From IMG/VR virus record IMGVR_UViG_3300017783_000001: a stretch of DNA of 64,000 nucleotides, one strand, 5' to 3'. Positions 21,319 to 46,014 of this stretch are shown in pieces. Under the pieces are notes generated by a model. It was not told the origin of the DNA, did no database searches, and was given only the letters and a program-made list of their open reading frames with translations. Source of the DNA: a virus. Position numbers and translations under genes: made by a program. Within the stretch, counting starts at the first letter, position 1, and each line of letters begins with the position of its first letter.

Positions 21319-21741
21319 CTATTTTAATTTAGCGTAAACCTTTGATGAACCGTTAGACAATGTTTCGTACTTAACTTCTAATTTTAAGTTATCAATACCA
21401 GGACCATTATCTACTACTACATCTTCAGGTTTCGTTTCAGTTGTTTTACCGTATGTACCACCGAATTGTTTTACTTCACCAGATACCGTTCCAGCGTCAC
21501 CTTCTAATTTCATAGGTGAAATGTCTAAACCAATTCTCATTAACTTTTCTCTTAATGAATCAACTGCTTGTTGTGGTTTGATATATTCCATATCTGCAAC
21601 CGAACCAACAAATGCGTTAACTCTTTTAAGTACATTAGGGTCTTTCAAATTTGCTGTACCGATATTACTATCTTCAGCAGCATTTGATGTAGCTGTTCCG
21701 ACCATCTTGTCTTCTTTTATGTGTTCTTTAAAAGTTTTCAT
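21319..21741 (-). CDS. Probable internal head protein with capsid-targeting-like N-terminus
   Basis: MKTFKEHIKE, close to the T4 CTS MKTYQEFIAE. Confidence 0.65.
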   Translation of the reverse strand: MKTFKEHIKEDKMVGTATSNAAEDSNIGTANLKDPNVLKRVNAFVGSVADMEYIKPQQAVDSLREKLMRIGLDISPMKLEGDAGTVSGEVKQFGGTYGKTTETKPEDVVVDNGPGIDNLKLEVKYETLSNGSSKVYAKLK

Positions 21742-24066: not shown

Positions 24067-24387
24067 TTATGTTGTATAATCTATCTTAGGATTAACATCA
24101 ATCTTGTCTGATTTACTTGCGTTTAATGTAGTTTTCTTTTCAGGTTCTTTTGACTTGATGTTCATAGGGTCTTTAGGTTCTTGTGATTTAGGTAGAACCG
24201 TATCTCCGGACATATCTTTATTTGTGTTATCTTCTTTCTTTGCTCTTAATTTTGCAAGGTCAGAACCATCAATCTTACCGTTATTGTTCTTATCTAATTT
24301 TTGTTGTTTCGGAGATAACTTCTCTTGCATTACTGCAGCTGTTATCGCTTCTTCAACTGAACCAGGTTTACTTTTTAAATATGACAT
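24067..24387 (-). CDS. EF-hand-containing prohead-core-like protein
   Basis: DKNNNGKIDGSDL loop after the VMQE site. Confidence 0.7.
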   Translation of the reverse strand: MSYLKSKPGSVEEAITAAVMQEKLSPKQQKLDKNNNGKIDGSDLAKLRAKKEDNTNKDMSGDTVLPKSQEPKDPMNIKSKEPEKKTTLNASKSDKIDVNPKIDYTT

Positions 24388-24388
24388 A

Positions 24389-26353
24389 TTAGCTTCCTTT
24401 TACTTTAGCGGCAAGGTCTTTGTCTGCCCCACCCCAAGTTCCACTTGATTTAGTTATAAATGAATTTACTCTAGCAAACGCCCATTGGTGTTGACTAGCC
24501 CCAGGTCTATGTCCACCTTTCCAGGCAGCCATTCCTCTATCGTATACTTTCTTTAGAATACCATATGGCATTCCAGATTTTTCTGCTTTGTTTTTTAATC
24601 CTTCAATTGCTTCATACATTTCTTTTGCAGGATGATTTTTGTTTTCAATGTTAAGTTTCTTCTTAACCATATTAGTAGCAGTTCCGTATCTAACACTATC
24701 GCCTTTCTTACCGTAAGCGTCTTTAAATTTCTTCTTCGGTAATTCATCAGCCATTTTATGTACTTGTTTGATTTGACCTTTAGTCATATCAGTATCTTCT
24801 TTTTTCTCTTTATTCTTTGGTTCTTTATATCCATTTGCGAAAGCAGCTTTTCTTTGTGCGTCTGAAGCAAAGCCTTCGTTAGTTCTTTGTAATACTTTTT
24901 GAACATCTGGATGGTCAGATAAACCTTTTGCGATTTTTTCAATTGCCTTAATGGCACCTGTCATATCGCCACCTTTATATCTCTTATCGTTTGCAACGCC
25001 ATATGCCATTTTGATTTGTTGTGAAGTAAATGTAGCTTCTGAAATAACTTCTTCTTTTACATTTTTCTTTTGTTTATCTCTTAATATCTTTTGTGCTAAT
25101 CCAACTTGTAATGGAACTTCTCCTGTATCAGGATTTGGTTCTGGTTTGATTGCTTTATTCTTTTCGTTTTCTAATTTTGTTTTTAACATATGTATCTGGT
25201 CTTTAAGAGCGTCTACATCAACTTTAGGTTCATCTTTCTTCTCTTTCTTCAAGTCTTTAAACTTAATCTTACCAGATTCAACTTCACCATTTTCTGTTTC
25301 TTCTGTAAACTTAACTGGTGCTAATACCGTACCGTGTGTTTTTGGGTCTAGTACTACCATCATTTCTTGTCCTGGTGTAGTCTTCTTATAATCTTTATTA
25401 ATCTTTTTGAAATTTGCTTTACTGATTTCAACAGGACCTTTACCAGTATATTTGTAATCTCTACCAGCAAGTACTGCCTCTTCAATTTTACTTTCAGTCT
25501 TTAAGTGAGACCTAGTTGCTAATTGCATATCTAAAATTTTTCTCATATTACCTTTTAGTTCAATACCACCAGGTACATCTGATACTTTTAATCCGTGTTG
25601 TTTTGCAAGTGAAACCATATTTGATTTCTCTTTTTCATTTGTGAAACCTTTAATAGTTCCTGTACCTTCGTTTAATTCGTCTTCTTCTTTAGTTAGTATT
25701 CTAGTGTCTGGGAAGTTATCCATTACTTTTTTATGGATTGCTTCTACATCTTTTGCACTATCAATTCTAACTTCTGAACCAGATTTAGAAATTTCTCCAC
25801 CACCTGTTTTACCTTTAAACATATTTGCAATCTTACTTGCTTCACCACCGTTCTTTGCCATATACTCTACATAATCAGTATATTCTAAAATAACTTGGTC
25901 CCAAGATTTGTTTTCAAATGCTGAAAGTTTTACACCTTTAGGTACTTTGATACCTTTTTGTATCATACGACTAACTGCCATTGCTGAAATAAAAGGAATG
26001 TCTGCTTTGAAGAGTTTAGGAAGTTGTGCGTCTGCAATTTTGTCAAAGATGTTTCTTAACTGATTTGCTCTTGCGATAGATATTCTCTTACCTGCAAGAC
26101 TAGCATATTCTGCTTTTAACTTTTTGATTTGTTGGTCTGTAAATTCAACCAGTTGTTCTTCCTTGATGTCTTCTTCACCTAGAATAGTTTTAACGGTTGC
26201 AACAGGCAACTTCATTTGTTTTGCAATGTCTTCAGCTGATTTACCTTGGTCAAAAAGAGTAGCAATAGTCTTCATCTTGCCTTCGTCAATCTGAATATCG
26301 TTTGCCCACACCTCTTCTAGTGCTTCTCTCATTGTTTGTGTATATCTTGTCAT
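24389..26353 (-). CDS. Modular internal head protein / probable polyprotein (C-terminal DUF5824-like domain)
   Basis: Short basic modules separated by L/I/V-x-E; C-terminal RGMAAW...QWAFARVNSF. Confidence 0.65.
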   Translation of the reverse strand: MTRYTQTMREALEEVWANDIQIDEGKMKTIATLFDQGKSAEDIAKQMKLPVATVKTILGEEDIKEEQLVEFTDQQIKKLKAEYASLAGKRISIARANQLRNIFDKIADAQLPKLFKADIPFISAMAVSRMIQKGIKVPKGVKLSAFENKSWDQVILEYTDYVEYMAKNGGEASKIANMFKGKTGGGEISKSGSEVRIDSAKDVEAIHKKVMDNFPDTRILTKEEDELNEGTGTIKGFTNEKEKSNMVSLAKQHGLKVSDVPGGIELKGNMRKILDMQLATRSHLKTESKIEEAVLAGRDYKYTGKGPVEISKANFKKINKDYKKTTPGQEMMVVLDPKTHGTVLAPVKFTEETENGEVESGKIKFKDLKKEKKDEPKVDVDALKDQIHMLKTKLENEKNKAIKPEPNPDTGEVPLQVGLAQKILRDKQKKNVKEEVISEATFTSQQIKMAYGVANDKRYKGGDMTGAIKAIEKIAKGLSDHPDVQKVLQRTNEGFASDAQRKAAFANGYKEPKNKEKKEDTDMTKGQIKQVHKMADELPKKKFKDAYGKKGDSVRYGTATNMVKKKLNIENKNHPAKEMYEAIEGLKNKAEKSGMPYGILKKVYDRGMAAWKGGHRPGASQHQWAFARVNSFITKSSGTWGGADKDLAAKVKGS

Positions 26354-26367
26354 CTTATATTTCTCTC

Positions 26368-26649
26368 CTAAAATTCCTTTATTTCTATAATTAGTCTACC
26401 TTCACCTTTGTGTACTCTATGAAATGTTTCCTTTGGTATATCAAAAACATCTCCTACTTTCATAATGACTGGGAGTTTATTATCCATTTGTAATTTCCAA
26501 TTAACTCCTGCAATAATTCTTATCGTTCTATTTCGTCTATCTCGGTGCCAAACTAAATTCTCTTCTTTGGCGTCTTGTCCGAAACTCCGTTGAAAGAAAT
26601 CGTCCGTTTTTGTTTCGTCCGGTCTTTCATCATAAAATTCCATTGTCAA
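26368..26649 (-). CDS. Cupin-fold protein
   Basis: LVWHRD, W.LQ.DN.LP, IPKETFHRV. Confidence 0.75.
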   Translation of the reverse strand: MTMEFYDERPDETKTDDFFQRSFGQDAKEENLVWHRDRRNRTIRIIAGVNWKLQMDNKLPVIMKVGDVFDIPKETFHRVHKGEGRLIIEIKEF

Positions 26650-26652
26650 CTC

Positions 26653-27192
26653 CTACCAGTAAAAGTTACCCCCACCCGATAGTCCTAATGACTTCGCATA
26701 ACGAGGTAAGTTGCAAGCCCAATAGGCAGCACTTGTTTTATCTTTTTGTTGGTCGCACTTATGACGAGCAGCAAAAGATTTTCTGGCTTGTTTGTCGTTT
26801 AACTTAACTCTTAAACCAGTAGTGTCTCCCCAAGTAACCTTCTTAATCTTATCTCCGTCCTTTACAAAAACATAAAACTTTTTAGGTCCACCTTTTTTTG
26901 GTTTATTTAAAGGCGGATTCTTTTCGTCTTCTTCTTGTATCGGACAATCTAAAGGTACTTTCATACCTTCATATTCAGCAAATTCTCCAATGTCTGTTTC
27001 TAATAAAGTTCTATCCCATTCACTTTCGCATTGTAATAGACCTTCATTAAACATATGTCTTGCTTCTCTAAACAAGGCATAAAACTCTTCGCTATGTACT
27101 CTATATATGTTCTCAGCAAGAGGTATGCTATTCTCAATATGATAGTTTAACGAGACCGTTATCTTATCTGCATAATCACTAAATCTTAACAT
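26653..27192 (-). CDS. Two-domain late protein with C-terminal DUF6321-like domain
   Basis: KKFYVFV, ARKSFAARHKCD, AYWAC; PIQE junction. Confidence 0.65.
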   Translation of the reverse strand: MLRFSDYADKITVSLNYHIENSIPLAENIYRVHSEEFYALFREARHMFNEGLLQCESEWDRTLLETDIGEFAEYEGMKVPLDCPIQEEDEKNPPLNKPKKGGPKKFYVFVKDGDKIKKVTWGDTTGLRVKLNDKQARKSFAARHKCDQQKDKTSAAYWACNLPRYAKSLGLSGGGNFYW

Positions 27193-30103
27193 ATTCTTTA
27201 AAAGATTGTACTTTCAATCTCTCCTCCATTTTTTTCACAGCGTCATTCAATTCTACTTGATATTCTTCTCCGTATCGTTTCTTATATTTATCAATAGTCT
27301 CACTTGAAGAAGCCCATTTCTGTATATCTTCTTGGTTTATTGTCTCTGGACTCGTTTCTGCACGCTGTCCTGGGGTTACTCTTTTAGTATGGTCTGCATA
27401 ATCTTTACCTATCTCGTAAGATTCTTTACCATACATTTGTTGATATTTCTTTGTATGTACACTAGTAGTTGTCTTTGCGTCTTTATCTCCTGGTGCAGCT
27501 TTGTAATCTTTATCATTATCTGATTTATTATATTTTTGTTTAGAAAAGTGTTTTGCTCTTTTTTCTTTTTCACCTTTCTTCATATCTTTGTAATACTTTT
27601 TAGGTTGTGTACCTTTTTTAGATTTTACATCTTTATCTTGTGGTAATTTCTTACCATATTCTTCATTCATTTTGACTTCCGTTTCTGATACTGCTTCAAA
27701 ACCATAGTCTACATTTAAATTAATTTCGTGTAATTTAGTTTCATCTATGTTAGTCTGTGGAATACAATTCCATATCCAACATTTATGTAAGTTAGAATTA
27801 TTGTCTTCTAATACAACATAGTTTGTACTTCTACGAATTACTTTACCTGTAATCTCTTGTTCTTGGTCTTCAACACTATCGTTTATGTTAAATAGTTGTT
27901 CACGGATATACAAGTCTCTTAAATGCCATTTAGTAAAGCTTTCAACACTAGCGATAGGTTGATATGTTCCGATACCTGGTCCAGTATAACCTGCAGCCAA
28001 GTTCATTCCTTTTCTAATTAATCCAAATAGTTTATCTTTATCTCTAAAAGATGTAGGTAGACCTTGTTTAAAAGATTTAAGGTCATTAGATTGAGCCGCA
28101 GCTCTCATTTTACTTGCTGACATTCCCATAGCGCCTTCAGCGTCTGGGTCTCTTTCGCCAGCAGATACGATATTGATTTTATCAAACTCGTAATTTGTTC
28201 CTCTTGCTTGTACACCGTTGTACTTGTTTAGTAGTGTTTCAAATTCTCTTACTCTATCTGAACCAACTACCATTGTTATTTCGTTTGCTTTGCCATTTAA
28301 TTTATTAACAACTTCAATTGCTGTTCTAGCACCAGTAATTTGTTTTATCTTACTTGCGTGTCTAGGAAACATAGATTTCATAACTCTAATCTTGTCGTTA
28401 ACTTTTAATGGATTTTTCTTTGGGTCTTGCGAACCACTTGGCACAATGAGATAATCATTAGCACCTACAGACGCCACTTTGTTAATTAACTTTTCGTGGC
28501 CTATCGTTGGTGGATTAAATCTACCAAATGTAAATGCGATATGTTTTTTAGGTGTGCCTACTGCTTCAGTTTTTAGACTATCAATTTCTTTATCGGTAAC
28601 TATACCGTCATCTAAAATCTTCTTGCACTTCTTAAAGAAAGTAATGTAATGATATTTCTCTAACATCTTATAGATTACATTTTTAGGTAATCTGTTTTTA
28701 ATACTATACTTTCTGATTTCGTCTGGCGACATATCTGTATCAAACGCACTTCTTCTTTCTGCGTCAACACCGTCACCAATCTTTATTATGTCCTCTATAT
28801 CAGTTTCTATTTCTTCTAACTTACTCTCTACTCTTGCTTGTAAGTTTTCTATATCGTCAGGACTTAATTCTTTTAATTCGTCATAGTCAACAATGTCTCT
28901 TTTTAGTTCACCTTTGACTACATCTATTTCTTGTACTTTCTTATTGAAGTCAGCAATATAATCATCAACATTAAAAGTAAAATCTTCAGGTCTTTTAACA
29001 AATACATTTCTTGTAATTGAAAATACTGCGTCTGCTTTTTTCTCTTGGTCTTTATATGTTGCTTCATCGGTTACAAAATAATAGTTAATAGGATGTTTTG
29101 TACCAGGTATTAATTTACCTTGTATGTTATTTGGATTCTTTGATGAAAGATATTGTAAAGATAGTCTTTCTCTTTCTGCAACTCTTTCACTTTCAGGTAC
29201 ATCAAATAATACATTGATGTCTAGGTCTGCGTCATTTCTATATCTATGTGTTAGAATAGAACCAATCAAACCATACTTAATAACTGGAAATTCTTTTTCA
29301 AATACTTTGATTTGGTCTTGTATTTGTTTTACTACACTTGCTTTTATTTTAGGATTATTTGTATCTGCATTATCAAATACAGCAGGTGCATATGTTTTTC
29401 TAGGAATGTCAATAATACTTTCCTGAATATCTACCATATTGATTAACTTATCTGCAATCTTTACAGACATTGTATGGTCAGATGGATAGTGCCAACCTGC
29501 AACAACTCTACCATAACCACATTCATCAGCAAGTTCTATTAGATTATCTTTATGTTTAGGATATAATTTACCATAGTATTCTGCAATTAGTCTACTTTGT
29601 AAACTATGACCAGATGGATATGCTGGTGTCTTCATACTATCAGAAATTAATTCCATACTATCAAAATCCATATTCATTTCTTTTGCAAGTTCATATGGTC
29701 TTGGTCTTTGAAATTTGTTTTTGTAATGTCTAACTACACCACTACCTGCTTTCTTTAATTCAGATATATCTTTCTTATCATATTCTAAATTATATTTCAT
29801 TAGGTATGCTTCAATACCATAAAATGTTTCTTGGTCGTGGTTCTTTACGCTTTCTACAACTGCACTATTTCTTTGTTTAAATAGTTCAGTCATCATTTCT
29901 AATTCTCTTTTAGTTTCAGGACTATCATTTTCAGAAGGTGCTTTAACATCTATTTTTTTCCAGTCACCAACAATATTCTGTACAGGTTTGTTGTCAACTT
30001 TAGGGTGTGTTAAATCATTCAAGTCTTCTGCTACAGACTTGCACTTCTTTAATAGTTCTTTAACATAGTCCATTCTATGTTTCTTTTGAAAATTATCTGG
30101 CAT
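27179..30103 (-). CDS. Multidomain enzyme: PAP2 phosphatase + Pol-beta-type nucleotidyltransferase + HxGH cytidylyltransferase/NMNAT-like domain + basic C-terminal modules
   Basis: KNKFQRPRP / YPSGHS / GRVVAGWHYPSD; IGSILT...DADLD; FGRFNPPTIGH, VGSDR, MSASKMR. Confidence 0.85.
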   Translation of the reverse strand: MPDNFQKKHRMDYVKELLKKCKSVAEDLNDLTHPKVDNKPVQNIVGDWKKIDVKAPSENDSPETKRELEMMTELFKQRNSAVVESVKNHDQETFYGIEAYLMKYNLEYDKKDISELKKAGSGVVRHYKNKFQRPRPYELAKEMNMDFDSMELISDSMKTPAYPSGHSLQSRLIAEYYGKLYPKHKDNLIELADECGYGRVVAGWHYPSDHTMSVKIADKLINMVDIQESIIDIPRKTYAPAVFDNADTNNPKIKASVVKQIQDQIKVFEKEFPVIKYGLIGSILTHRYRNDADLDINVLFDVPESERVAERERLSLQYLSSKNPNNIQGKLIPGTKHPINYYFVTDEATYKDQEKKADAVFSITRNVFVKRPEDFTFNVDDYIADFNKKVQEIDVVKGELKRDIVDYDELKELSPDDIENLQARVESKLEEIETDIEDIIKIGDGVDAERRSAFDTDMSPDEIRKYSIKNRLPKNVIYKMLEKYHYITFFKKCKKILDDGIVTDKEIDSLKTEAVGTPKKHIAFTFGRFNPPTIGHEKLINKVASVGANDYLIVPSGSQDPKKNPLKVNDKIRVMKSMFPRHASKIKQITGARTAIEVVNKLNGKANEITMVVGSDRVREFETLLNKYNGVQARGTNYEFDKINIVSAGERDPDAEGAMGMSASKMRAAAQSNDLKSFKQGLPTSFRDKDKLFGLIRKGMNLAAGYTGPGIGTYQPIASVESFTKWHLRDLYIREQLFNINDSVEDQEQEITGKVIRRSTNYVVLEDNNSNLHKCWIWNCIPQTNIDETKLHEINLNVDYGFEAVSETEVKMNEEYGKKLPQDKDVKSKKGTQPKKYYKDMKKGEKEKRAKHFSKQKYNKSDNDKDYKAAPGDKDAKTTTSVHTKKYQQMYGKESYEIGKDYADHTKRVTPGQRAETSPETINQEDIQKWASSSETIDKYKKRYGEEYQVELNDAVKKMEERLKVQSFKEYVKI

Positions 30104-30767
30104 TTCTTTTCTTCGCTAGTTCTTGTTCTATCCATTTCTTTGCGACATAATTTTGAACAGGTTTTCTAACGAGTCCTCTAATTCGTGTGTAAACTTTGTT
30201 AAGTGTATCTTCACTTGCATTATTATTATCAACTACAATCATACTACCAGTACCAAATAGATTTTGAAATCTACCTATATTACTTTGTACAACATTCCAA
30301 CTCTTCGTTGCAATATTTACAGGCACGGTTCTAGTTCTAACTTTGTTTCTTTGTAATGCAACTTCTAAACTTGTATTTACAAACATCATATAAGTATCGT
30401 AACCTAACATTCTTAACATACTTCTTTGTTTATTAATAATATCATAGTCTCTACCTGTGGCGTCAATGACAAGACCTAATCTATTTCTAATATATAAGTC
30501 CATCTGGTCGCCTGTAATTTGTTTTGCTCTCGCTCTTAATGGGTCTCTTTGACCTGCTTCTTTATCTGGCATTTTTAATGAGAGACCTGCCTTCTTTAAA
30601 TACATTTCAAATCTGACATCTGAATTAACTAATTTTAAACCCATACCAGCAGTTGTTCTATTGGTAACATATGACTTACCAGAACCAGGACCACCTGCTA
30701 AAAAGAACGCTTTGAATATACCTGGGTCGTAAACGCCTTCTTGTATTATGTGTTTAAAAGTTTTCAT
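30093..30767 (-). CDS. P-loop kinase (AAA_33 / zeta-toxin / polynucleotide-kinase-like)
   Basis: GGPGSGKS, NSD, LVIDATG, ALQRNKVR.R lid; N-terminus MKTFKHIIQE. Confidence 0.8.
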   Translation of the reverse strand: MKTFKHIIQEGVYDPGIFKAFFLAGGPGSGKSYVTNRTTAGMGLKLVNSDVRFEMYLKKAGLSLKMPDKEAGQRDPLRARAKQITGDQMDLYIRNRLGLVIDATGRDYDIINKQRSMLRMLGYDTYMMFVNTSLEVALQRNKVRTRTVPVNIATKSWNVVQSNIGRFQNLFGTGSMIVVDNNNASEDTLNKVYTRIRGLVRKPVQNYVAKKWIEQELAKKRNAR

Positions 30768-31060
30768 ACTTTGTATAGAGTATACTTTAAAGTTAACTCT
30801 TCTCCTTCTTTTATATCTTCTAGTGTTTGTACATAATATTTTCCATCAACTTCTATCTTTTGACAATTAGGTTTATCACTATGATTTAAAAAACCACCAA
30901 GTGGTGTTCTATAAATTTCTCTACCCATAGTCAAATGAGAGATACCTAAATCTGTCATCTTATCAATTGTTGCTGTTGCAAATAAACCAAAACCTTCTAT
31001 TGGCGATAACTTTATTGTTATATTATCAGGTAAAGGTCTATACTTATCTGTCATCTCCAC
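30764..31060 (-). CDS. Minimal SET-domain methyltransferase
   Basis: GFGLFA, FLNHSDKPNC, DIKEGEELTLKY. Confidence 0.85.
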   Translation of the reverse strand: MEMTDKYRPLPDNITIKLSPIEGFGLFATATIDKMTDLGISHLTMGREIYRTPLGGFLNHSDKPNCQKIEVDGKYYVQTLEDIKEGEELTLKYTLYKV

Positions 31061-31361
31061 TACCTTGTATTTTGTTTCTTTCTTGTCTATCTTTTAATTT
31101 TTGTAAATTTAATTGTGCGATTGTATCTAAATCAATATCTAAATCTCTCGCAAGTGCTGATATGTACCATAACACATCACCTAATTCTTTTTTCATATCT
31201 TCTTTAAATGTAGGACTTGCACCGTCTCTAATATTCTTTTTAACTTTTTCTGCGACTTCACCTGCTTCACCACATAATCCTAATGCAGGATAAGTTACCT
31301 TACTTGCAAGTGGATAAATTGCTGTGTTTGCAGCTAGAGTTTGGTATTCATTAAATTGCAT
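31044..31361 (-). CDS. mazG: MazG-like NTP pyrophosphohydrolase
   Basis: LGLCGEAGEVAEKVKK, KELGDVLWY. Confidence 0.9.
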   Translation of the reverse strand: MQFNEYQTLAANTAIYPLASKVTYPALGLCGEAGEVAEKVKKNIRDGASPTFKEDMKKELGDVLWYISALARDLDIDLDTIAQLNLQKLKDRQERNKIQGSGDDR

Positions 31362-31950
31362 TTTCTATCTCCTTAATAATGTCTTTCGCAATATCTCCAG
31401 GTTCTTTTCCTTCAGCTTTGATAGATATAAACCCAGGTCTTTTTTTGTAATGTTCAATGGCAGGTCCTGTTTCTTTTTTGTATAACTGGATTCTATCATT
31501 AATAATATCTGGCTTATCATCTTTTCTTCCTCTCTTTGTAAGTCTTCTAATAACTTCTTCATTACTCACATCAAGGAATACAACAACATCATAAGCGATA
31601 CCATTTTTTTCCATATCTCTTACTTGTTGCATATATCTAGGATAACCATCTAACACATAACCTTTTGAAGCGTCTTTCTCTTGTAATGCTTTCTTCACTA
31701 ATTTTAAAACTATATCGTTAGGTGCAAACTTACCTTGGTCTAATAAGTTCTTAATCTTTTGTCCTTCAGGACCACCTTTATCAATTTCTTTTCTTAATAA
31801 ACCACCTGGGTAAATATGTTTGATACCAAAGTGTCTTATAATGTATTCACTATAAGTTGATTTACCACTTCCTGGTCCACCCATTATAATAACTCTAGTT
31901 TGTTTTGCTTCGTTCAAAAAATTGAATAGATATTGTTTAAATGTATCCAT
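31351..31950 (-). CDS. adk: Adenylate kinase
   Basis: GGPGSGKST, LDGYPR, RGRKDD; N-terminus MDTFKQYLFNFLNE. Confidence 0.88.
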   Translation of the reverse strand: MDTFKQYLFNFLNEAKQTRVIIMGGPGSGKSTYSEYIIRHFGIKHIYPGGLLRKEIDKGGPEGQKIKNLLDQGKFAPNDIVLKLVKKALQEKDASKGYVLDGYPRYMQQVRDMEKNGIAYDVVVFLDVSNEEVIRRLTKRGRKDDKPDIINDRIQLYKKETGPAIEHYKKRPGFISIKAEGKEPGDIAKDIIKEIENAI

Positions 31951-31951
31951 A

Positions 31952-33166
31952 CTAACCTTTCACCCAATCTTTTGCAATCGTAAAGTTTGCTCTACTAAAT
32001 TCTAATCTGTCTACAAGTTTAACTACATTACCAATCTTATCTGTTGCAACATAACCTTCAGGTGATGTTACCTTAAAACCATTATCGGTTTTTAAAAAGT
32101 GTCCGATAGATTGTATCTGTGCTATTTTTCTTACTACAATGTTTTTGCAATTCTGTAATGTGATGTATGTTGCAATTGCGAAATATAAAGATTGTTTATT
32201 TCTTTGAATAAATTTTATGTTATCTGCTTTTGCTTTAATATAAGGTGCTTTACCTTTTTCTGTTTTTCTATTATCTATTTCTTTGTCAATGAAACTTGTA
32301 TAGTATGGTTCAAAACCATCTACTAGTTGTTTAACACTACCCATACCTTGTGTACCTCTAACGATACTATTGAAATATGTTTTAATTTTAAAACCTACAC
32401 TTAACTCGTCTCTACTATCAAACTGATTTAACATAGGTCCTGCTTTAGATAAACTACCTTGTGCCATTCTTAACTGAGCATTGAATTGTGAAACTTCAGC
32501 ACGATTGAAACTTGCACTACCACTAGCGTCTTTGTATTCTGCACTTGGTACCCATACACTACCACTTCTGATTCCTCTAACATATCCAAAGTTAGCATTT
32601 AATTCTGACATTTTATTACCAACATATTGAGTATGAAACACTATGCCCATTCTAGCACGAGCAATCTTACGACCGACAGCACTATTAACAGGCATAGCAT
32701 ATGTTATAGTATTAGGAGTAAAGGTAATCATTGATTGTCCGTCAATGTTATTCACTTTCTTATCTTCATTAGTAAAGAGACAATCACCTTGGACAATGCC
32801 TCTTATACCTAATTTTTTCAATTCTCTTAATGCAACTTCTAATTTTGCACCAACACCACCTGGGTGATTTCTTCTTATGTCTGCTGAAGTGTAATTGATT
32901 TTAGGAGTTTTATTGAATACAGATTTTGTACCGACAAAGAATTTGCCGTTTTCAGGATTAGTTCCACATACTATCGCAGGAGCGCCGTCCCACTTAACGG
33001 TTACATTTACTCTATTGCTAACATTACCTGTTAACATTTTCTGCAAAGATTGTAAGAACGCTATTGCGTTTCTACCGCCTTTGGCACCGTTATTAATTAT
33101 TTCGTCTTCTAAATGCTCAAGGTGTGTGTTCGTACCCGAGCTAGAATATCCTTTAAAACTAAACAT
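31952..33166 (-). CDS. DUF6267-like protein with RNA-ligase/covalent nucleotidyltransferase motifs
   Basis: HLEHLED, KWDG (motif I), QGD, EGYV (motif IV), VKLV (motif V). Confidence 0.7.
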   Translation of the reverse strand: MFSFKGYSSSGTNTHLEHLEDEIINNGAKGGRNAIAFLQSLQKMLTGNVSNRVNVTVKWDGAPAIVCGTNPENGKFFVGTKSVFNKTPKINYTSADIRRNHPGGVGAKLEVALRELKKLGIRGIVQGDCLFTNEDKKVNNIDGQSMITFTPNTITYAMPVNSAVGRKIARARMGIVFHTQYVGNKMSELNANFGYVRGIRSGSVWVPSAEYKDASGSASFNRAEVSQFNAQLRMAQGSLSKAGPMLNQFDSRDELSVGFKIKTYFNSIVRGTQGMGSVKQLVDGFEPYYTSFIDKEIDNRKTEKGKAPYIKAKADNIKFIQRNKQSLYFAIATYITLQNCKNIVVRKIAQIQSIGHFLKTDNGFKVTSPEGYVATDKIGNVVKLVDRLEFSRANFTIAKDWVKG

Positions 33167-33236: not shown

Positions 33237-33244
33237 TATTTATA
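33237..33244 (-). promoter_or_regulatory. T4-type late promoter heading the 33.2 to 24 kb block
   Basis: TATAAATA. Confidence 0.75.
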
Positions 33245-33248
33245 AGTC

Positions 33249-34667
33249 TTATGACACCTTAACAAAGAAAGAAGATAAATCAGTACTAGAAGCTGCGTAT
33301 TTTATAATATCCGTACATACATTATTTCTTTGTGTTGATGTTGCACTCATCATAGTATCTAAAAATAGTAGACACATATTCTTACTGAATATAAAACTAC
33401 CACCTTTATCTAAACATTGTTTGATAAACGGTTTAACATCTACTGGATTCTTCGCATACTTCTTATATAGGACATACATATCATTTAACTTGACTTGACT
33501 ACTTGGTGTTTCTTTCCAACCAGATAATAAGCCTTGTGAACCTATAGATTTTCGTATGTGTTTCTCACAATAGAAATTTAAATTACCACCACCGATTTTA
33601 CCACCGGCAGCACTCAATCCTTTTATCTCTCCTTGCCAAGATGAAGAAGAGTTAAATGCTCTAAACTGAACATTCGCACTACCCATATTCATATACATAT
33701 CAATTGAAGAAAAGAAATCGTTATTTTTTCCAAATACATAATTCTTATAAGCGTGTGATACTAACTTCACTCTTTCAGGAGCATTGTACTCTTCTAACTT
33801 AACGGTACTACCTAATTTCTTTAGAGAGATACCTAGTAAGAAAGTTCTAGGAGTATTTAATCTACCTGCTTTGTCTAATACTGCTTGATTTAGTATTCCC
33901 CAATCTTGCTTAAACATTGCAAGAGGATCCGAACCTGGTGTCATTGTAGTCATCCATATATCACCTGGATTCCATTTATCATCTGAAAAACTACCTGGTG
34001 CTAATGGTGCTCTACCATCTTTCTGTGCCATTTGTTTATCTATTTTTATTACTTCTTTTTTAGCTGCATATACTTTACCCATAAAAGTACTGCCTCTATG
34101 AAAGTAAACACCACCTGTAACCTTTGATGAATACTTTTTATAAATTTCGTTTGCTGTTTTTATAAATGTACCACTTTCAATCCAATCTGATGGTACTCTA
34201 TCTTTAAATGCTGTATAAGCAACGGTAGCCTGTACATAACGAGAAGCCTTTTCCATATTGGCGTCTGTAATGTCTGATAACTTTAGTGGACCTTTTTTAA
34301 CATTAAATGCTAATGAACAATAATAACATTGTCCACTTTCAGTAATTGCGGTCACAGCTGCACCACCACCTGAACCACCTCCACCACCAAATAGTGGTGA
34401 CTTATAAATTTGTGTAAGAGATATTTCTTCTATCTTACTTCCTGTAGAAGATTTGACTTGAATAACACAAGGCCAAGCATTAGGTTTTGATACAATTGCG
34501 ATACCTTCTAGTTTACGACCACTAGATGTTTTACCTTCAACAAATCTTTCTTTGTTGTTAATCATTAATTGTACAATTTCAAAACGAGACTTACCAGCAT
34601 ACTTACCATTCTTGGCTGCATATGGTTTATTATCTCTTATAAAATCGTTCTTCGTAAAAACTGCCAT
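33249..34667 (-). CDS. PD-(D/E)xK restriction-endonuclease-like protein
   Basis: TESGQC helix, KWNPGDIW, LGISLKK. Confidence 0.6.
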   Translation of the reverse strand: MAVFTKNDFIRDNKPYAAKNGKYAGKSRFEIVQLMINNKERFVEGKTSSGRKLEGIAIVSKPNAWPCVIQVKSSTGSKIEEISLTQIYKSPLFGGGGGSGGGAAVTAITESGQCYYCSLAFNVKKGPLKLSDITDANMEKASRYVQATVAYTAFKDRVPSDWIESGTFIKTANEIYKKYSSKVTGGVYFHRGSTFMGKVYAAKKEVIKIDKQMAQKDGRAPLAPGSFSDDKWNPGDIWMTTMTPGSDPLAMFKQDWGILNQAVLDKAGRLNTPRTFLLGISLKKLGSTVKLEEYNAPERVKLVSHAYKNYVFGKNNDFFSSIDMYMNMGSANVQFRAFNSSSSWQGEIKGLSAAGGKIGGGNLNFYCEKHIRKSIGSQGLLSGWKETPSSQVKLNDMYVLYKKYAKNPVDVKPFIKQCLDKGGSFIFSKNMCLLFLDTMMSATSTQRNNVCTDIIKYAASSTDLSSFFVKVS

Positions 34668-34726: not shown

Positions 34727-34803
34727 TGGCGACCTCGGCAGGACTTGAACCTGCAACATCCAGTTTAGAAGACTGGTGCTCTATCCAGTTGAGCTACGAG
34801 GCC
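34727..34803 (-). tRNA. tRNA-Arg(UCU)
   Basis: GGCCTCG/CGAGGTC acceptor stem, CCAGT-CTTCTAA-ACTGG anticodon arm, GTTCAAGTC T-loop, encoded CCA. Confidence 0.95.
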
Positions 34804-34814
34804 ATACTCCAGAT

Positions 34815-34899
34815 TGGTGCCACCGACCGGACTTGAACCGGTAAGGATTACTCCGACGGATTTTAAGTCCGTTGTGTTTACCAATTTCACCACGGTGGC
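34815..34899 (-). tRNA. tRNA-Leu(UAA)
   Basis: GCCACCG/CGGTGGC acceptor stem, ACGGA-CTTAAAA-TCCGT anticodon arm, long variable arm, encoded CCA. Confidence 0.95.
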
Positions 34900-44520: not shown

Positions 44521-46014
44521 TTAGTCTTTGTCAATAGGTGGTAATCGTTTTGATAAAACAAATGTTCTATTAGGATTAACAGACGCATTGAATAATCTGA
44601 TTACTTCTCTATTTAGTAATACATCTGAACCAGACCTTGGTCGTTGGTCAAGTCCAAATTCTATATCAGGATATGTGAAACCGTTAAAGGTAAGTGGTAA
44701 TTGAATTGTTGTTCTAGTTTCTGATGGTTCTTCACCTTCTGCATTAGCACGAAAGACTTTACTCTCCCCGTACTTCGGTGCTGAATATGTCTTACCATTA
44801 TACTTCCAGGTTACCTTTTTACCTTCTACTTTAATATTTTCAGCGTGCATTGAACAAGCGTGAGCACCGTTACCAGTATCCATTTTTGCTCTCATCTTAC
44901 CGATGTCGCCTACTTCTATTGTTTCTAACCAACCTACTTCTGAAATAGATTGTCTGTCCCAATTCTTTCTTTCTGATAACCATTTAATTAAGTTAGTTAC
45001 CAGTTTATCTCCTTTGATTGCACCACTATTTTCTGGATCCGAATAGAAGTCTTTATAAACATATCCTTCGTATTCTGCACCAGTACCAGGTGAACCATTG
45101 ACTTCTAATACATAAGGTTTTCCTTTGTGTATAATGTGGTCAACTCCACATAGATACGCCTTGGACGCCCTGCTGGCTCGTAGTATGATGTCTATTTCCT
45201 CGTCTTTCAACTTATAAGGAACAGCGTCAGCACCTCTATGTGTATTAGTTCTAAAATCGTCTGAGCCTTGAATTCTTTTTGTACTTGCAAAGATTTTATT
45301 ATCTACTACAAATGTTCTAATGTCAAAATCACTTGGCATAAATTCTTGTATTAACAATTCTGCACCGTGTTTCCATAGTGCCTGAATAGTTGATACTAGT
45401 CCGTCATAACTATCTACCTTTACAACACCGATACCTTGTGTACCAGTTAATGACTTTAAGATTACAGGAAACTTATCTACACCACCAATTAATTCTAATG
45501 CGTCATCTATATTTTTTTCGTTAGATATAAATGCTGTTTTAGGTGTTGGTATACCAAACTTCTCAAATAGTAAAGCAGAAGTAAGTTTGTTATTACAAGT
45601 TAACATTGCGTTTCTTGTATTACACATAAATGAACCAGAGTTTTGAAAAGCAGAAACGATTGATAAACCACTTTCATCTTCTACAGAACCTGCTCTAGTA
45701 ATACAAACGGTATCTTTACCTATAAATGTATATTCAGTATCTTTACCATCAAAATTATAAACGGTTAAAGTATTTTTTTCTTCGTCTTTACCTGTGATAA
45801 TAGCGTGTCTAGTTTCAATAACTATACACTTAATCTTTAATTTTTCGCAAGCGTCATTGATTAACTTAACCGTCAGTTCTTTACTTTCCTTACCACCAAC
45901 TTTTCTCTTCTTCAAGTCAGGATTAGTTTTAGTAATTACTGCAATTGTGATTGGTTTGTTTTCTCTATCTAAAGTTTGTTCAGATAAGAAATCGGTAAAG
46001 TTTTGTACTTGCAT
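44521..46014 (-). CDS. RimK-family ATP-grasp ligase fused to a RimB-like retropepsin protease
   Basis: IPTPKT, GTQGIGV, IQEF, DIR, FRTNTHRG, GVD, LEVNGSPG; C-terminal AKMDTGNG...LLNR. Confidence 0.88.
   Translation of the reverse strand: MQVQNFTDFLSEQTLDRENKPITIAVITKTNPDLKKRKVGGKESKELTVKLINDACEKLKIKCIVIETRHAIITGKDEEKNTLTVYNFDGKDTEYTFIGKDTVCITRAGSVEDESGLSIVSAFQNSGSFMCNTRNAMLTCNNKLTSALLFEKFGIPTPKTAFISNEKNIDDALELIGGVDKFPVILKSLTGTQGIGVVKVDSYDGLVSTIQALWKHGAELLIQEFMPSDFDIRTFVVDNKIFASTKRIQGSDDFRTNTHRGADAVPYKLKDEEIDIILRASRASKAYLCGVDHIIHKGKPYVLEVNGSPGTGAEYEGYVYKDFYSDPENSGAIKGDKLVTNLIKWLSERKNWDRQSISEVGWLETIEVGDIGKMRAKMDTGNGAHACSMHAENIKVEGKKVTWKYNGKTYSAPKYGESKVFRANAEGEEPSETRTTIQLPLTFNGFTYPDIEFGLDQRPRSGSDVLLNREVIRLFNASVNPNRTFVLSKRLPPIDKD

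Follow-up and report, generated by a model that had tools for sequence, protein, structure and literature searches.

Putative fossil capsid tags at the domain seams of a multi-enzyme protein from an uncultured marine T4-like phage

Introduction

Why should a phage weld a phosphatase to two nucleotidyltransferases, and where would such a protein act? These questions are raised by a 64,000-nucleotide stretch of viral DNA (i.e. IMG/VR record IMGVR_UViG_3300017783_000001; hereafter the window), in which one open reading frame (ORF) at 27179-30103 on the minus strand encodes a 974-amino-acid (aa) protein, hereafter the target. Comparison of this protein with its relatives suggests an end-to-end fusion of enzymes whose seams resemble the capsid-targeting tags of phage T4, and points tentatively to an enzyme cargo of the phage head.

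The target is a conserved multi-enzyme

The ORF is uninterrupted over its 974 codons. Metagenomic contigs as long as 156 kb encode near-identical 974-aa proteins, indicating that the gene is genuine rather than a product of misassembly. The genome is AT-rich, with a GC content of 33%, and has all of its genes on one strand. Its gp41 helicase shared 64-66% protein identity with the helicases of two Kyanoviridae, Pelagibacter phage HTVC008M and Methylophilales phage Melnitz, and the window was therefore attributed to an uncultured marine T4-like (Kyanoviridae-type) myovirus. As judged by these sequence comparisons, the target is a real, conserved multi-enzyme of such a phage. It begins with a PAP2 module; next come a Pol-beta nucleotidyltransferase (NT) bearing a helical domain and a TxGH adenylyltransferase, and the C-terminal part consists of a small beta domain and a lysine-rich tail. 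The features of the target are as follows (all on the minus strand; arrows mark candidate cut sites).

29420..30103: soluble class-A PAP2 acid-phosphatase module, residues 1-228 (Pfam, solved relatives, motifs)
29420..29431: junction 1, DIQE↓S (residues 225-228, then S229), fitting [LI]xE; putative fossil N-terminus of the NT module
28565..29419: Pol-beta-superfamily nucleotidyltransferase core with a helical-bundle domain of ~140 residues, residues 229-513 (AlphaFold model, conserved motifs)
28565..28576: junction 2, LKTE↓A (residues 510-513, then A514); putative fossil cleavage site of an adenylyltransferase capsid tag
27989..28564: TxGH Rossmann-type adenylyltransferase, residues 514-705 (Pfam, phrog_395, fold searches)
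27734..27931: small conserved beta domain after the adenylyltransferase, residues ~725-790 (model, conservation)
27179..27673: lysine-rich basic tail with a conserved C-terminal motif, residues 811-974 and stop codon (composition, homology)

A preliminary description of this locus, made from the sequence alone, had proposed three enzyme folds with intact catalytic motifs. Pfam matches and motif positions bore this out, and all catalytic motifs were kept in 18 diverse relatives that were 52-99% identical, indicating that the domains are not catalytically dead, an outcome for which the preliminary description had allowed.

The PAP2 module matched Pfam PAP2 over residues 126-215 (36.5 bits versus a cut-off of 27.2) and contained all three class-A signatures, with both catalytic histidines: the KX6RP motif as KNKFQRPRP at 128-136, the PSGH motif at 163-166 and the third motif as GRVVAGWHYPSD at 198-209. 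This last reads (G)RX5HX3D, the serine of SRX5HX3D being replaced by glycine. The first ~26 residues were not conserved in relatives. The closest solved relative was acid phosphatase 7f17 (E 6e-9), followed by PhoN/PhoC-type enzymes (E 1e-4 to 7e-4). The module lacks the signal peptide of secreted enzymes, and no hydrophobic N-terminal or internal segment was present in the target (maximum 19-residue Kyte-Doolittle mean of 0.79), which argues for an intracellular or virion-borne rather than a periplasmic phosphatase. A BcrC-type membrane lipid phosphatase was also considered and set aside, as there was no hydrophobic segment and phage matches of that kind were weak.

The NT module was matched by Pfam NTP_transf_2 over residues 264-314 at 19.9 bits, just below the 21-bit cut-off; 13 of 42 relatives with other architectures were matched at E <= 0.001 and some exceeded 21 bits. 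Its catalytic motif, LIGS...DADLDI, spans residues 279-296 (GS at 281-282, DxD at 293-295). In an alignment of 58 sequences (A1), G47 and D61 were invariant and S48 and D59 were conserved in >=90%, and the helical-bundle domain contained invariant R, K, Y, N and E residues. The AlphaFold model (pLDDT 95.3) showed a minimal Pol-beta core plus a long helical bundle. The core matched the minimal nucleotidyltransferases 1ylq (Z 8.3) and 2rff (Z 7.5), and for the whole module Foldseek ranked ANT(6), LinB and AadA best, followed by CD-NTases including CdnD, with TM values of only 0.2-0.3. Single-sequence and profile searches against solved structures reached no family. The module forms a family of its own, with 624 representative clusters that consist mostly of stand-alone proteins of ~290 aa and are all viral where taxa are known. 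Other fusions within this family include a PARP/Tpt1-like domain, DUF5662 (twice) and HEAT or TPR repeats (P0204, P0183, P0192). One of the 42 other fusions (a member of alignment A3) carries a Tad6 Thoeris-inhibitor domain (E 2.5e-34); it was not among the ten candidate proteins inspected.

A role for this module in tRNA CCA repair or as a CD-NTase, as envisaged in the preliminary description, found no specific structural support in the Foldseek and VIA matches of the NT model. Neither search placed a chain of a CCA-adding enzyme or a poly(A) polymerase among its top 50 matches, a viral tRNA nucleotidyltransferase was matched once (E 0.08) and a Pfam MTPAP-like match was sub-threshold. The CD-NTases CdnD, CdnE and CdnB gave E values of 5e-3 to 0.1 and a TM of ~0.2, and the alignment contained no invariant third acidic residue in the NT sheet that could serve as the third catalytic acid of CD-NTases.

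The third enzyme matched Pfam CTP_transf_like over residues 525-625 (36.2 bits versus a cut-off of 21) and phrog_395 (E 1e-71). It had been described as an HxGH nucleotidyltransferase; the HIGH-superfamily fold and motifs are present (i.e. GRFNPPTIGH at 527-536, GSDR at 614-617 and MSASKMR at 661-667), but the first motif is in fact T-I-G-H. GSDR, GERDPD and SASK.R were invariant across the family alignment. Foldseek matched NadD (E 3e-6) and also PPAT, NadM and NMNAT1, while VIA ranked PPAT (Z 13.6) above NadD (12.3) and archaeal NMNAT (11.9); single-sequence and profile searches against solved structures reached no family. An NMNAT-like activity is possible, but the fold is tied with PPAT. 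The claim that this domain is common in marine T4-like phages held, as the domain is their 'cytidyltransferase' (552 phage records); nothing functional on the cyanophage cytidyltransferase or on its neighbour DUF6267 was found in the literature. In cyanophage adenylyltransferases, the capsid tag is separated from the catalytic domain by a further conserved stretch of ~80 residues (..KLGLKHV.YG.Y.D..G..; L091:1261-2409, L092:1264-2415, L085:3683-4912), which is absent from the target.

The beta domain has five predicted strands (pLDDT 80-90) and invariant R, Y, G, N, Y and W residues, and is also present in cultured homologues. A weak profile match of this region (P0001 ~710-800, window ~27700-27975) to the kinetoplastid mitoribosomal protein mL89 (E 0.008) is probably due to chance. 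The tail (22% Lys, pI 9.5) is homologous to that of HTVC008M gp130 and was modelled with low confidence.

The seams resemble capsid-targeting tags of unfused relatives

The N-termini of T4 IPII and IPIII, MKTYQEFIAE↓A, form the capsid-targeting sequence, in which, as shown by experiment, residues 4 and 7 direct loading and residues 8 and 10 direct cleavage by gp21; Asp at position 10 blocks cleavage and not loading (PMC9026906). Stand-alone NT proteins begin MKTFKQFLxE↓SIID and stand-alone adenylyltransferases begin MKKFSEFLSE↓A, including Syn9 gp184, P-SSM4_155, S-SCSM1 ORF91 and Melnitz gene 18. Both match T4 at positions 4, 7, 8 and 10. No tag was present in a homologue from a non-T4-like jumbo phage. 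A tag pattern of the M-K-x-F-x-x-F-[LI]-x-E↓(A or S) type (i.e. aromatics at 4 and 7, [LI]-x-E at 8-10) fitted 22 of 28 adenylyltransferase-first proteins (79%) and 74 of 187 NT-first proteins (40%), as compared to 2.0% of background windows. The same sequences recur inside the fusions. PAP2-less relatives begin MKTFKESIIDIPR, the seam in PAP2 fusions reads ..KTFKE↓SIIDIPR, and the protein of the window has a degenerate DIQE↓SIIDIPR. At junction 2, hydrophobic-x-E↓A was present in 233 of 236 fused relatives and the canonical [LIV]xE[ASG] in 61%, as compared to 6.9% of background windows; KTEA occurs in a minority of 18 proteins, P0009 reads LKE↓A, and insertions of up to ~110 aa are tolerated. 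Because the unfused NT and adenylyltransferase proteins begin with matching T4-type capsid tags, the two inter-domain seams are, as read from these alignments, fossil tags of once-separate proteins together with their cut sites.

The preliminary description had proposed cleavage-like junctions at DIQE, LKTE and MNEE. The first two gained support from the comparison, since they lie at domain boundaries and coincide with the tags of the unfused enzymes, but at junction 2 the hydrophobic P3 residue has been lost and MNEE (812-815) is no junction motif; it was rejected because its stretch varies in the alignment and was modelled with low confidence. The T4 cleavage rule is obeyed by IQE↓S at junction 1 and not by KTE↓A at junction 2. 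A gp21-type protease (Peptidase_S77) was detected above cut-off in four of five related contigs. No literature linking the capsid-targeting sequence to this enzyme family was found.

Tag look-alikes occur at other N-termini in the window, namely those of a 140-aa protein (21319-21741, minus strand; MKTFKEHIKE↓D), the adenylate kinase (31351-31950, minus strand; MDTFKQYLFNFLNE↓A) and a 497-aa protein (44521-46014, minus strand; MQVQNFTDFLSE↓Q). The strict pattern was matched by 2 of 87 window ORFs, approximately the chance rate, and the case for tags therefore rests on family-wide conservation and not on the count within the window.

Distribution and architecture of the fusion

The fusion had been called unusual. 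This holds in that its PAP2 and Pol-beta half has no counterpart in cultured phages, which hold only the C-terminal half, but the fusion is not rare, as >2,500 metagenomic proteins of similar length share the N-terminal half of the target. Among the proteins fetched for comparison, 136 consisted of NT alone, 113 of NT-adenylyltransferase and 116 of PAP2-NT-adenylyltransferase, 27 of these last also containing the domain of the downstream 179-aa gene (p179). The upstream kinase was fused on in P0009, P0124, P0131 and P0123. HTVC008M gp130 and Melnitz gene 18 carry DUF5824 at the C-terminus of the adenylyltransferase, and the p179 domain is also present in Melnitz (L082:5953-7905, L083:5959-7749); both domains belong to separate genes in the window, at 24389-26353 (minus strand; a 654-aa protein with C-terminal DUF5824) and 26653-27192 (minus strand), respectively. 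DUF6267 adjoins the adenylyltransferase throughout the cyanomyoviruses, as in Syn9 gp183 and gp184. These sequence comparisons offer good support for a modular fusion of enzymes whose unfused relatives appear to carry a T4-type capsid tag far above background.

The target lies in a putative late operon with a partner kinase

Three features of the surrounding region, all on the minus strand, bear on the expression and function of the target.

24067..33166: ten-gene operon comprising DUF6267, adenylate kinase, MazG, SET, kinase, target, p179, cupin, p654 (C-terminal DUF5824) and p106 (gene spacing, Pfam)
33237..33244: T4-type late-promoter motif TATAAATA, within a gap of 82 nt that precedes DUF6267, the first gene of the operon
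30093..30767: zeta-toxin-like P-loop kinase, the partner gene (Pfam AAA_33 and Zeta_toxin)

Intergenic gaps between 33166 and 24067 range from -17 to +14 nt. The gene order (gp41, DUF6267, adenylate kinase, kinase, [PAP2]-NT-adenylyltransferase, p179, p654, NT5C) was near-invariant in 80 related viral loci. The motif TATAAATA occurs eight times in the window (513, 10856, 17456, 22672, 23370, 33237, 49862 and 50638), always on the coding strand, and according to the ORF table about six of the eight sites closely precede a gene start, within a short intergenic gap, which is the placement of T4-type late promoters.

The kinase gene overlaps the start of the target by 11 nt (30093-30103) in a different frame, lay directly upstream of the target homologue in 74 of 80 related loci, and in P0009 (1181 aa) is fused to it in one frame. 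Its N-terminus, MKTFKHIIQE↓G, is tag-like, with E10 and G11 invariant across the kinase family. The family profile was closest to zeta toxin 1gvn (E 8.9e-6), the Pnkp kinase domain being matched at only E 0.08; the kinase also matched the polynucleotide kinases of phrog_505 (E 1e-5). Zeta toxin and AvrRxo1-type kinases phosphorylate hydroxyls of UDP-GlcNAc or NAD; zeta-type kinases are not known to phosphorylate polynucleotides.

For DUF6267, feature searches of the ESM Atlas gave no matches beyond its own family and viral clusters without a name, and no PDB or NCBIfam match was found. KWDG...EGYV...K motifs were seen by eye, and an hhalign comparison with T4 Rnl2 gave a probability of 0.3%, a weak comparison with a single-sequence template; the premise of a ligase was dropped as unverified. 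Other genes of this region include a minimal SET protein of 98 aa (30764-31060, minus strand; Pfam SET, E 8e-11) that is encoded between MazG and the kinase and was shared by just 14 of the 80 related loci. Upstream of the operon lies a 472-aa protein (p472; 33249-34667, minus strand; phrog_1462) with 29% identity (E 9e-30) to S-SCSM1 ORF90 (L085:2322-3656). Genes for tRNA-Arg(TCT) and tRNA-Leu(TAA) were present at 34727-34899 (minus strand), between the helicase and the 472-aa gene.

Packaging of the target

Homologues of the adenylyltransferase were detected in virions of S-SCSM1 and two other cyanophages (PMC9602691), and the S-SCSM1 record annotates ORF91 (i.e. the adenylyltransferase homologue), its neighbours and ORF90 (i.e. 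the p472 homologue) as virion proteins. We infer from these observations and from the tags a scheme in which the target would have been built by end-to-end fusion of enzymes that are separate and mostly capsid-tagged in related phages. The ten-gene operon would be transcribed from the late promoter, and the target would probably be loaded into the head, either alone or with the tag-bearing zeta-like kinase. The gp21-type prohead protease may cut it at IQE↓S, and the target would then enter the cell together with the phage DNA. There, the kinase, the phosphatase and the two nucleotidyltransferases could act in sequence on a nucleotide-type small molecule. Packaging and cutting of the target itself are plausible. 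Taken as a whole, a late-made, probably capsid-loaded enzyme cargo that was assembled by fusion and acts on such a molecule is the reading that we favour, although with a confidence somewhat short of an even chance.

Several observations weigh against this proposal. The target begins MPDNFQKKHR, which does not resemble the tag, and the tag pattern fitted not one of the 121 PAP2-first relatives. At junction 1, the P3 residue across 124 fused proteins was F in about half, L or I in about a third and otherwise mostly M, so that half of the relatives have F and not L/I at this position; furthermore, the E and S of this junction are part of ES[IV]xD, a motif conserved within the NT family, and their conservation need not therefore mean cleavage. 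Junction 2 of the target, KTE↓A, has K at P3 following a one-residue insertion and lacks the hydrophobic P3 needed for T4 processing. An enrichment of [LI]xE sites in the target was looked for and rejected (9 observed versus 9.9 +/- 2.8 in shuffles). The total of TATAAATA sites was not above chance (8 versus 11.4 expected), and it is their strand and placement, not their number, that are suggestive of a late promoter. On the side of chemistry, NMNAT and PPAT equivalog models, with cut-offs of 103-341 bits, scored only 12-25 bits, the combination of a kinase with a phosphatase in one pathway could constitute a futile cycle, and neither NAMPT nor PnuC was found in five related contigs, although these are fragments, only 28-59% complete, and their lack of a match carries little weight.

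The first of these points also favour the strongest alternative, in which the target is an unpackaged, cytoplasmic auxiliary metabolic enzyme whose fusion channels nucleotide or cofactor salvage (of NAD, CoA or nucleotide-sugar type) and whose seams are functionless leftovers. The target and all 121 PAP2-first relatives are without the N-terminal pattern, junction 2 is degenerate, the gene sits among nucleotide-metabolism genes near the replicative helicase, and the adenylyltransferase fold is that of the housekeeping enzymes PPAT and NadD. However, a hydrophobic-x-E↓A junction retained in nearly all fused relatives is too conserved for a neutral relic, homologues have repeatedly been detected in virions (PMC9602691), the partner kinase has an invariant tag-like N-terminus, and a late-promoter motif stands at the head of the operon. 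We consider this alternative unlikely, although it deserves to be taken seriously.

A bolder form of the packaging proposal would have a capsid-delivered polyprotein enter the prohead, by itself or with the tagged zeta-like kinase, and be cut by the prohead protease at its fossil tags into free phosphatase and nucleotidyltransferases, which would be injected with the DNA and rebuild or rewire an NAD- or CoA-type cofactor within the first seconds of infection, ahead of phage gene expression. This extension is doubtful. If true, the injected enzyme set would pre-empt cofactor-depleting host immunity, and a general route would exist for T4-like phages from tagged single enzymes to multi-enzyme cargo.

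Candidate substrates and other functions

The PPAT/NMNAT fold, the non-specific nucleotide-type phosphatase, the ANT-like transferase and the neighbouring adenylate kinase, MazG and NT5C genes together favour a small nucleotide-type substrate. The substrate is the most conjectural part of the scheme; the most likely job would be to build or salvage an ADP-containing dinucleotide cofactor, in a manner that is either NadR-like (kinase then NMNAT) or CoA-synthase-like (PPAT then 3'-kinase). By analogy, both logics would fit the target plus the kinase, with no choice between them. A NadR-type kinase plus NMNAT has a precedent as a phage NAD+ pathway in NARP3 (PMC13464706). The NMNAT equivalog models of NCBIfam remained far under their cut-offs for the target (TIGR00482, 22.5 of 112 bits; TIGR01526, 20.5 of 341; TIGR01527, 12.6 of 181), as did the PPAT (CoaD) model TIGR01510 (17.4 versus 103 bits), though PPAT was the top structural match. 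PF04973, the profile of the PnuC transporter that accompanies the NadR-like NMNAT+RNK enzyme in NARP3-type modules, had zero matches in the five related contigs (28-59% complete).

A counter-defence effector would instead destroy or mask host immune nucleotides or NMPylate host proteins, with the PAP2 module dephosphorylating signal or breakdown molecules and the ANT/MNT-like enzyme nucleotidylating a hydroxyl on a signal or a protein. The NT fold does resemble both enzymes that O-adenylylate small molecules (ANT, LinB) and protein-AMPylating MNT antitoxins, and phage phosphatases have a precedent in NAD+-centred counter-defence (bioRxiv 10.64898/2026.01.28.702374). The Tad6 and PARP/Tpt1-like fusions in the NT family point in the same direction but are single cases among 42; the target matches no known anti-defence family, and its module is near-core and syntenic across the phage lineage (80 loci) rather than a gene of a variable island. 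Such a function appears improbable.

Slimmer still are the prospects of an RNA (tRNA) end-healing and sealing kit, with the kinase acting on 5'-OH ends, PAP2 on 3' or 2',3'-cyclic phosphates, the Pol-beta enzyme restoring CCA- or poly(A)-type 3' ends and DUF6267 serving as ligase, for although the phrog_505 and AAA_33 matches of the kinase, weak Pfam matches of the NT module to a poly(A)-polymerase palm, the by-eye motifs of DUF6267, the two tRNA genes 4.6 kb upstream and lysine-rich tails that could bind nucleic acid are in its favour, the kinase is nearest to a small-molecule kinase, CCA-adding enzymes and poly(A) polymerases are missing from the top structural matches of the NT model, DUF6267 bears little resemblance to Rnl2 in the weak comparison made, no PAP2 enzyme is known to act on polynucleotide ends, and the PPAT/NMNAT-like domain would be left without a role.

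Implications

In T4, the known cargo of the capsid-targeting system comprises small internal proteins and Alt. The present data suggest that an abundant ocean phage lineage uses the T4 address tag on metabolic-type enzymes (i.e. a kinase, a phosphatase and two nucleotidyltransferases), and that fusion of tagged enzymes into longer chains, with protease sites preserved at the seams, has occurred repeatedly. Such tagging would account for the repeated appearance of proteins that are 'NMNAT-like' among the virion proteins of cyanophages and would give the uncharacterised core 'cytidyltransferase' of marine T4-like phages a testable class of function. Injected enzymes may contribute more than is appreciated to early host takeover or to counter-defence and, if their chemistry concerns NAD or CoA, would connect to the NAD+-centred arms race between phages and bacteria.

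Comparison with known systems

The class A acid phosphatases (PhoN, PhoC and 7f17) share with the target the three signature motifs and an all-helical PAP2 core, but the PAP2 module of the target has no signal peptide, has Gly for Ser in SRX5HX3D and is fused to nucleotidyltransferases. The two-domain antibiotic nucleotidyltransferases (ANT(6), LinB, AadA and KNTase) and MNT likewise have a GS/DxD Pol-beta core followed by a helical acceptor-binding domain; the NT module differs from these in its low whole-module TM (0.2-0.3), in a helical domain without a specific match and in its virus-only family. PPAT (CoaD) and the NMNATs (NadD, NadM, NadR and Bas30_86 of NARP3) have the Rossmann fold and the (T/H)xGH and S-x-S/T-x-x-R-type motifs in common with the target, whose sequence similarity to them is, however, restricted to the first motif.

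The pairing of an adenylyltransferase with a P-loop kinase resembles the logic of NadR and CoA synthase. In contrast to these systems, the partner kinase is zeta-like and not RNK- or DPCK-like, and neither PnuC nor NAMPT was seen in the incomplete related contigs. Zeta toxin 1gvn and the partner kinase align over Walker A, the region of the catalytic Asp and the GTGR motif; unlike zeta toxin, the partner kinase has no epsilon-type antitoxin, lies in a putative late operon of a phage, begins with a tag-like sequence and in some relatives forms one protein with the multi-enzyme.

The 'cytidyltransferases' of cultured marine T4-like phages (Syn9 gp184, P-SSM4_155, S-SCSM1 ORF91 and HTVC008M gp130) are homologous to residues ~514-965 of the target, including beta domain and tail, with 37-46% identity. 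They occupy the same place downstream of gp41 and DUF6267 but are without the PAP2 and Pol-beta modules. With respect to packaging, the closest parallel is provided by T4 IPI-III and Alt. The target would differ from these in being a metabolic-type enzyme chain of ~110 kDa and not a small basic protein or an ADP-ribosyltransferase, and in that its tags are internal, at the domain seams, while its own N-terminus is not tag-like. As with the T4 proteins, the unfused relatives of the target carry a 10-residue tag, the lineage encodes a gp21-type protease, and homologues have been detected in virions.

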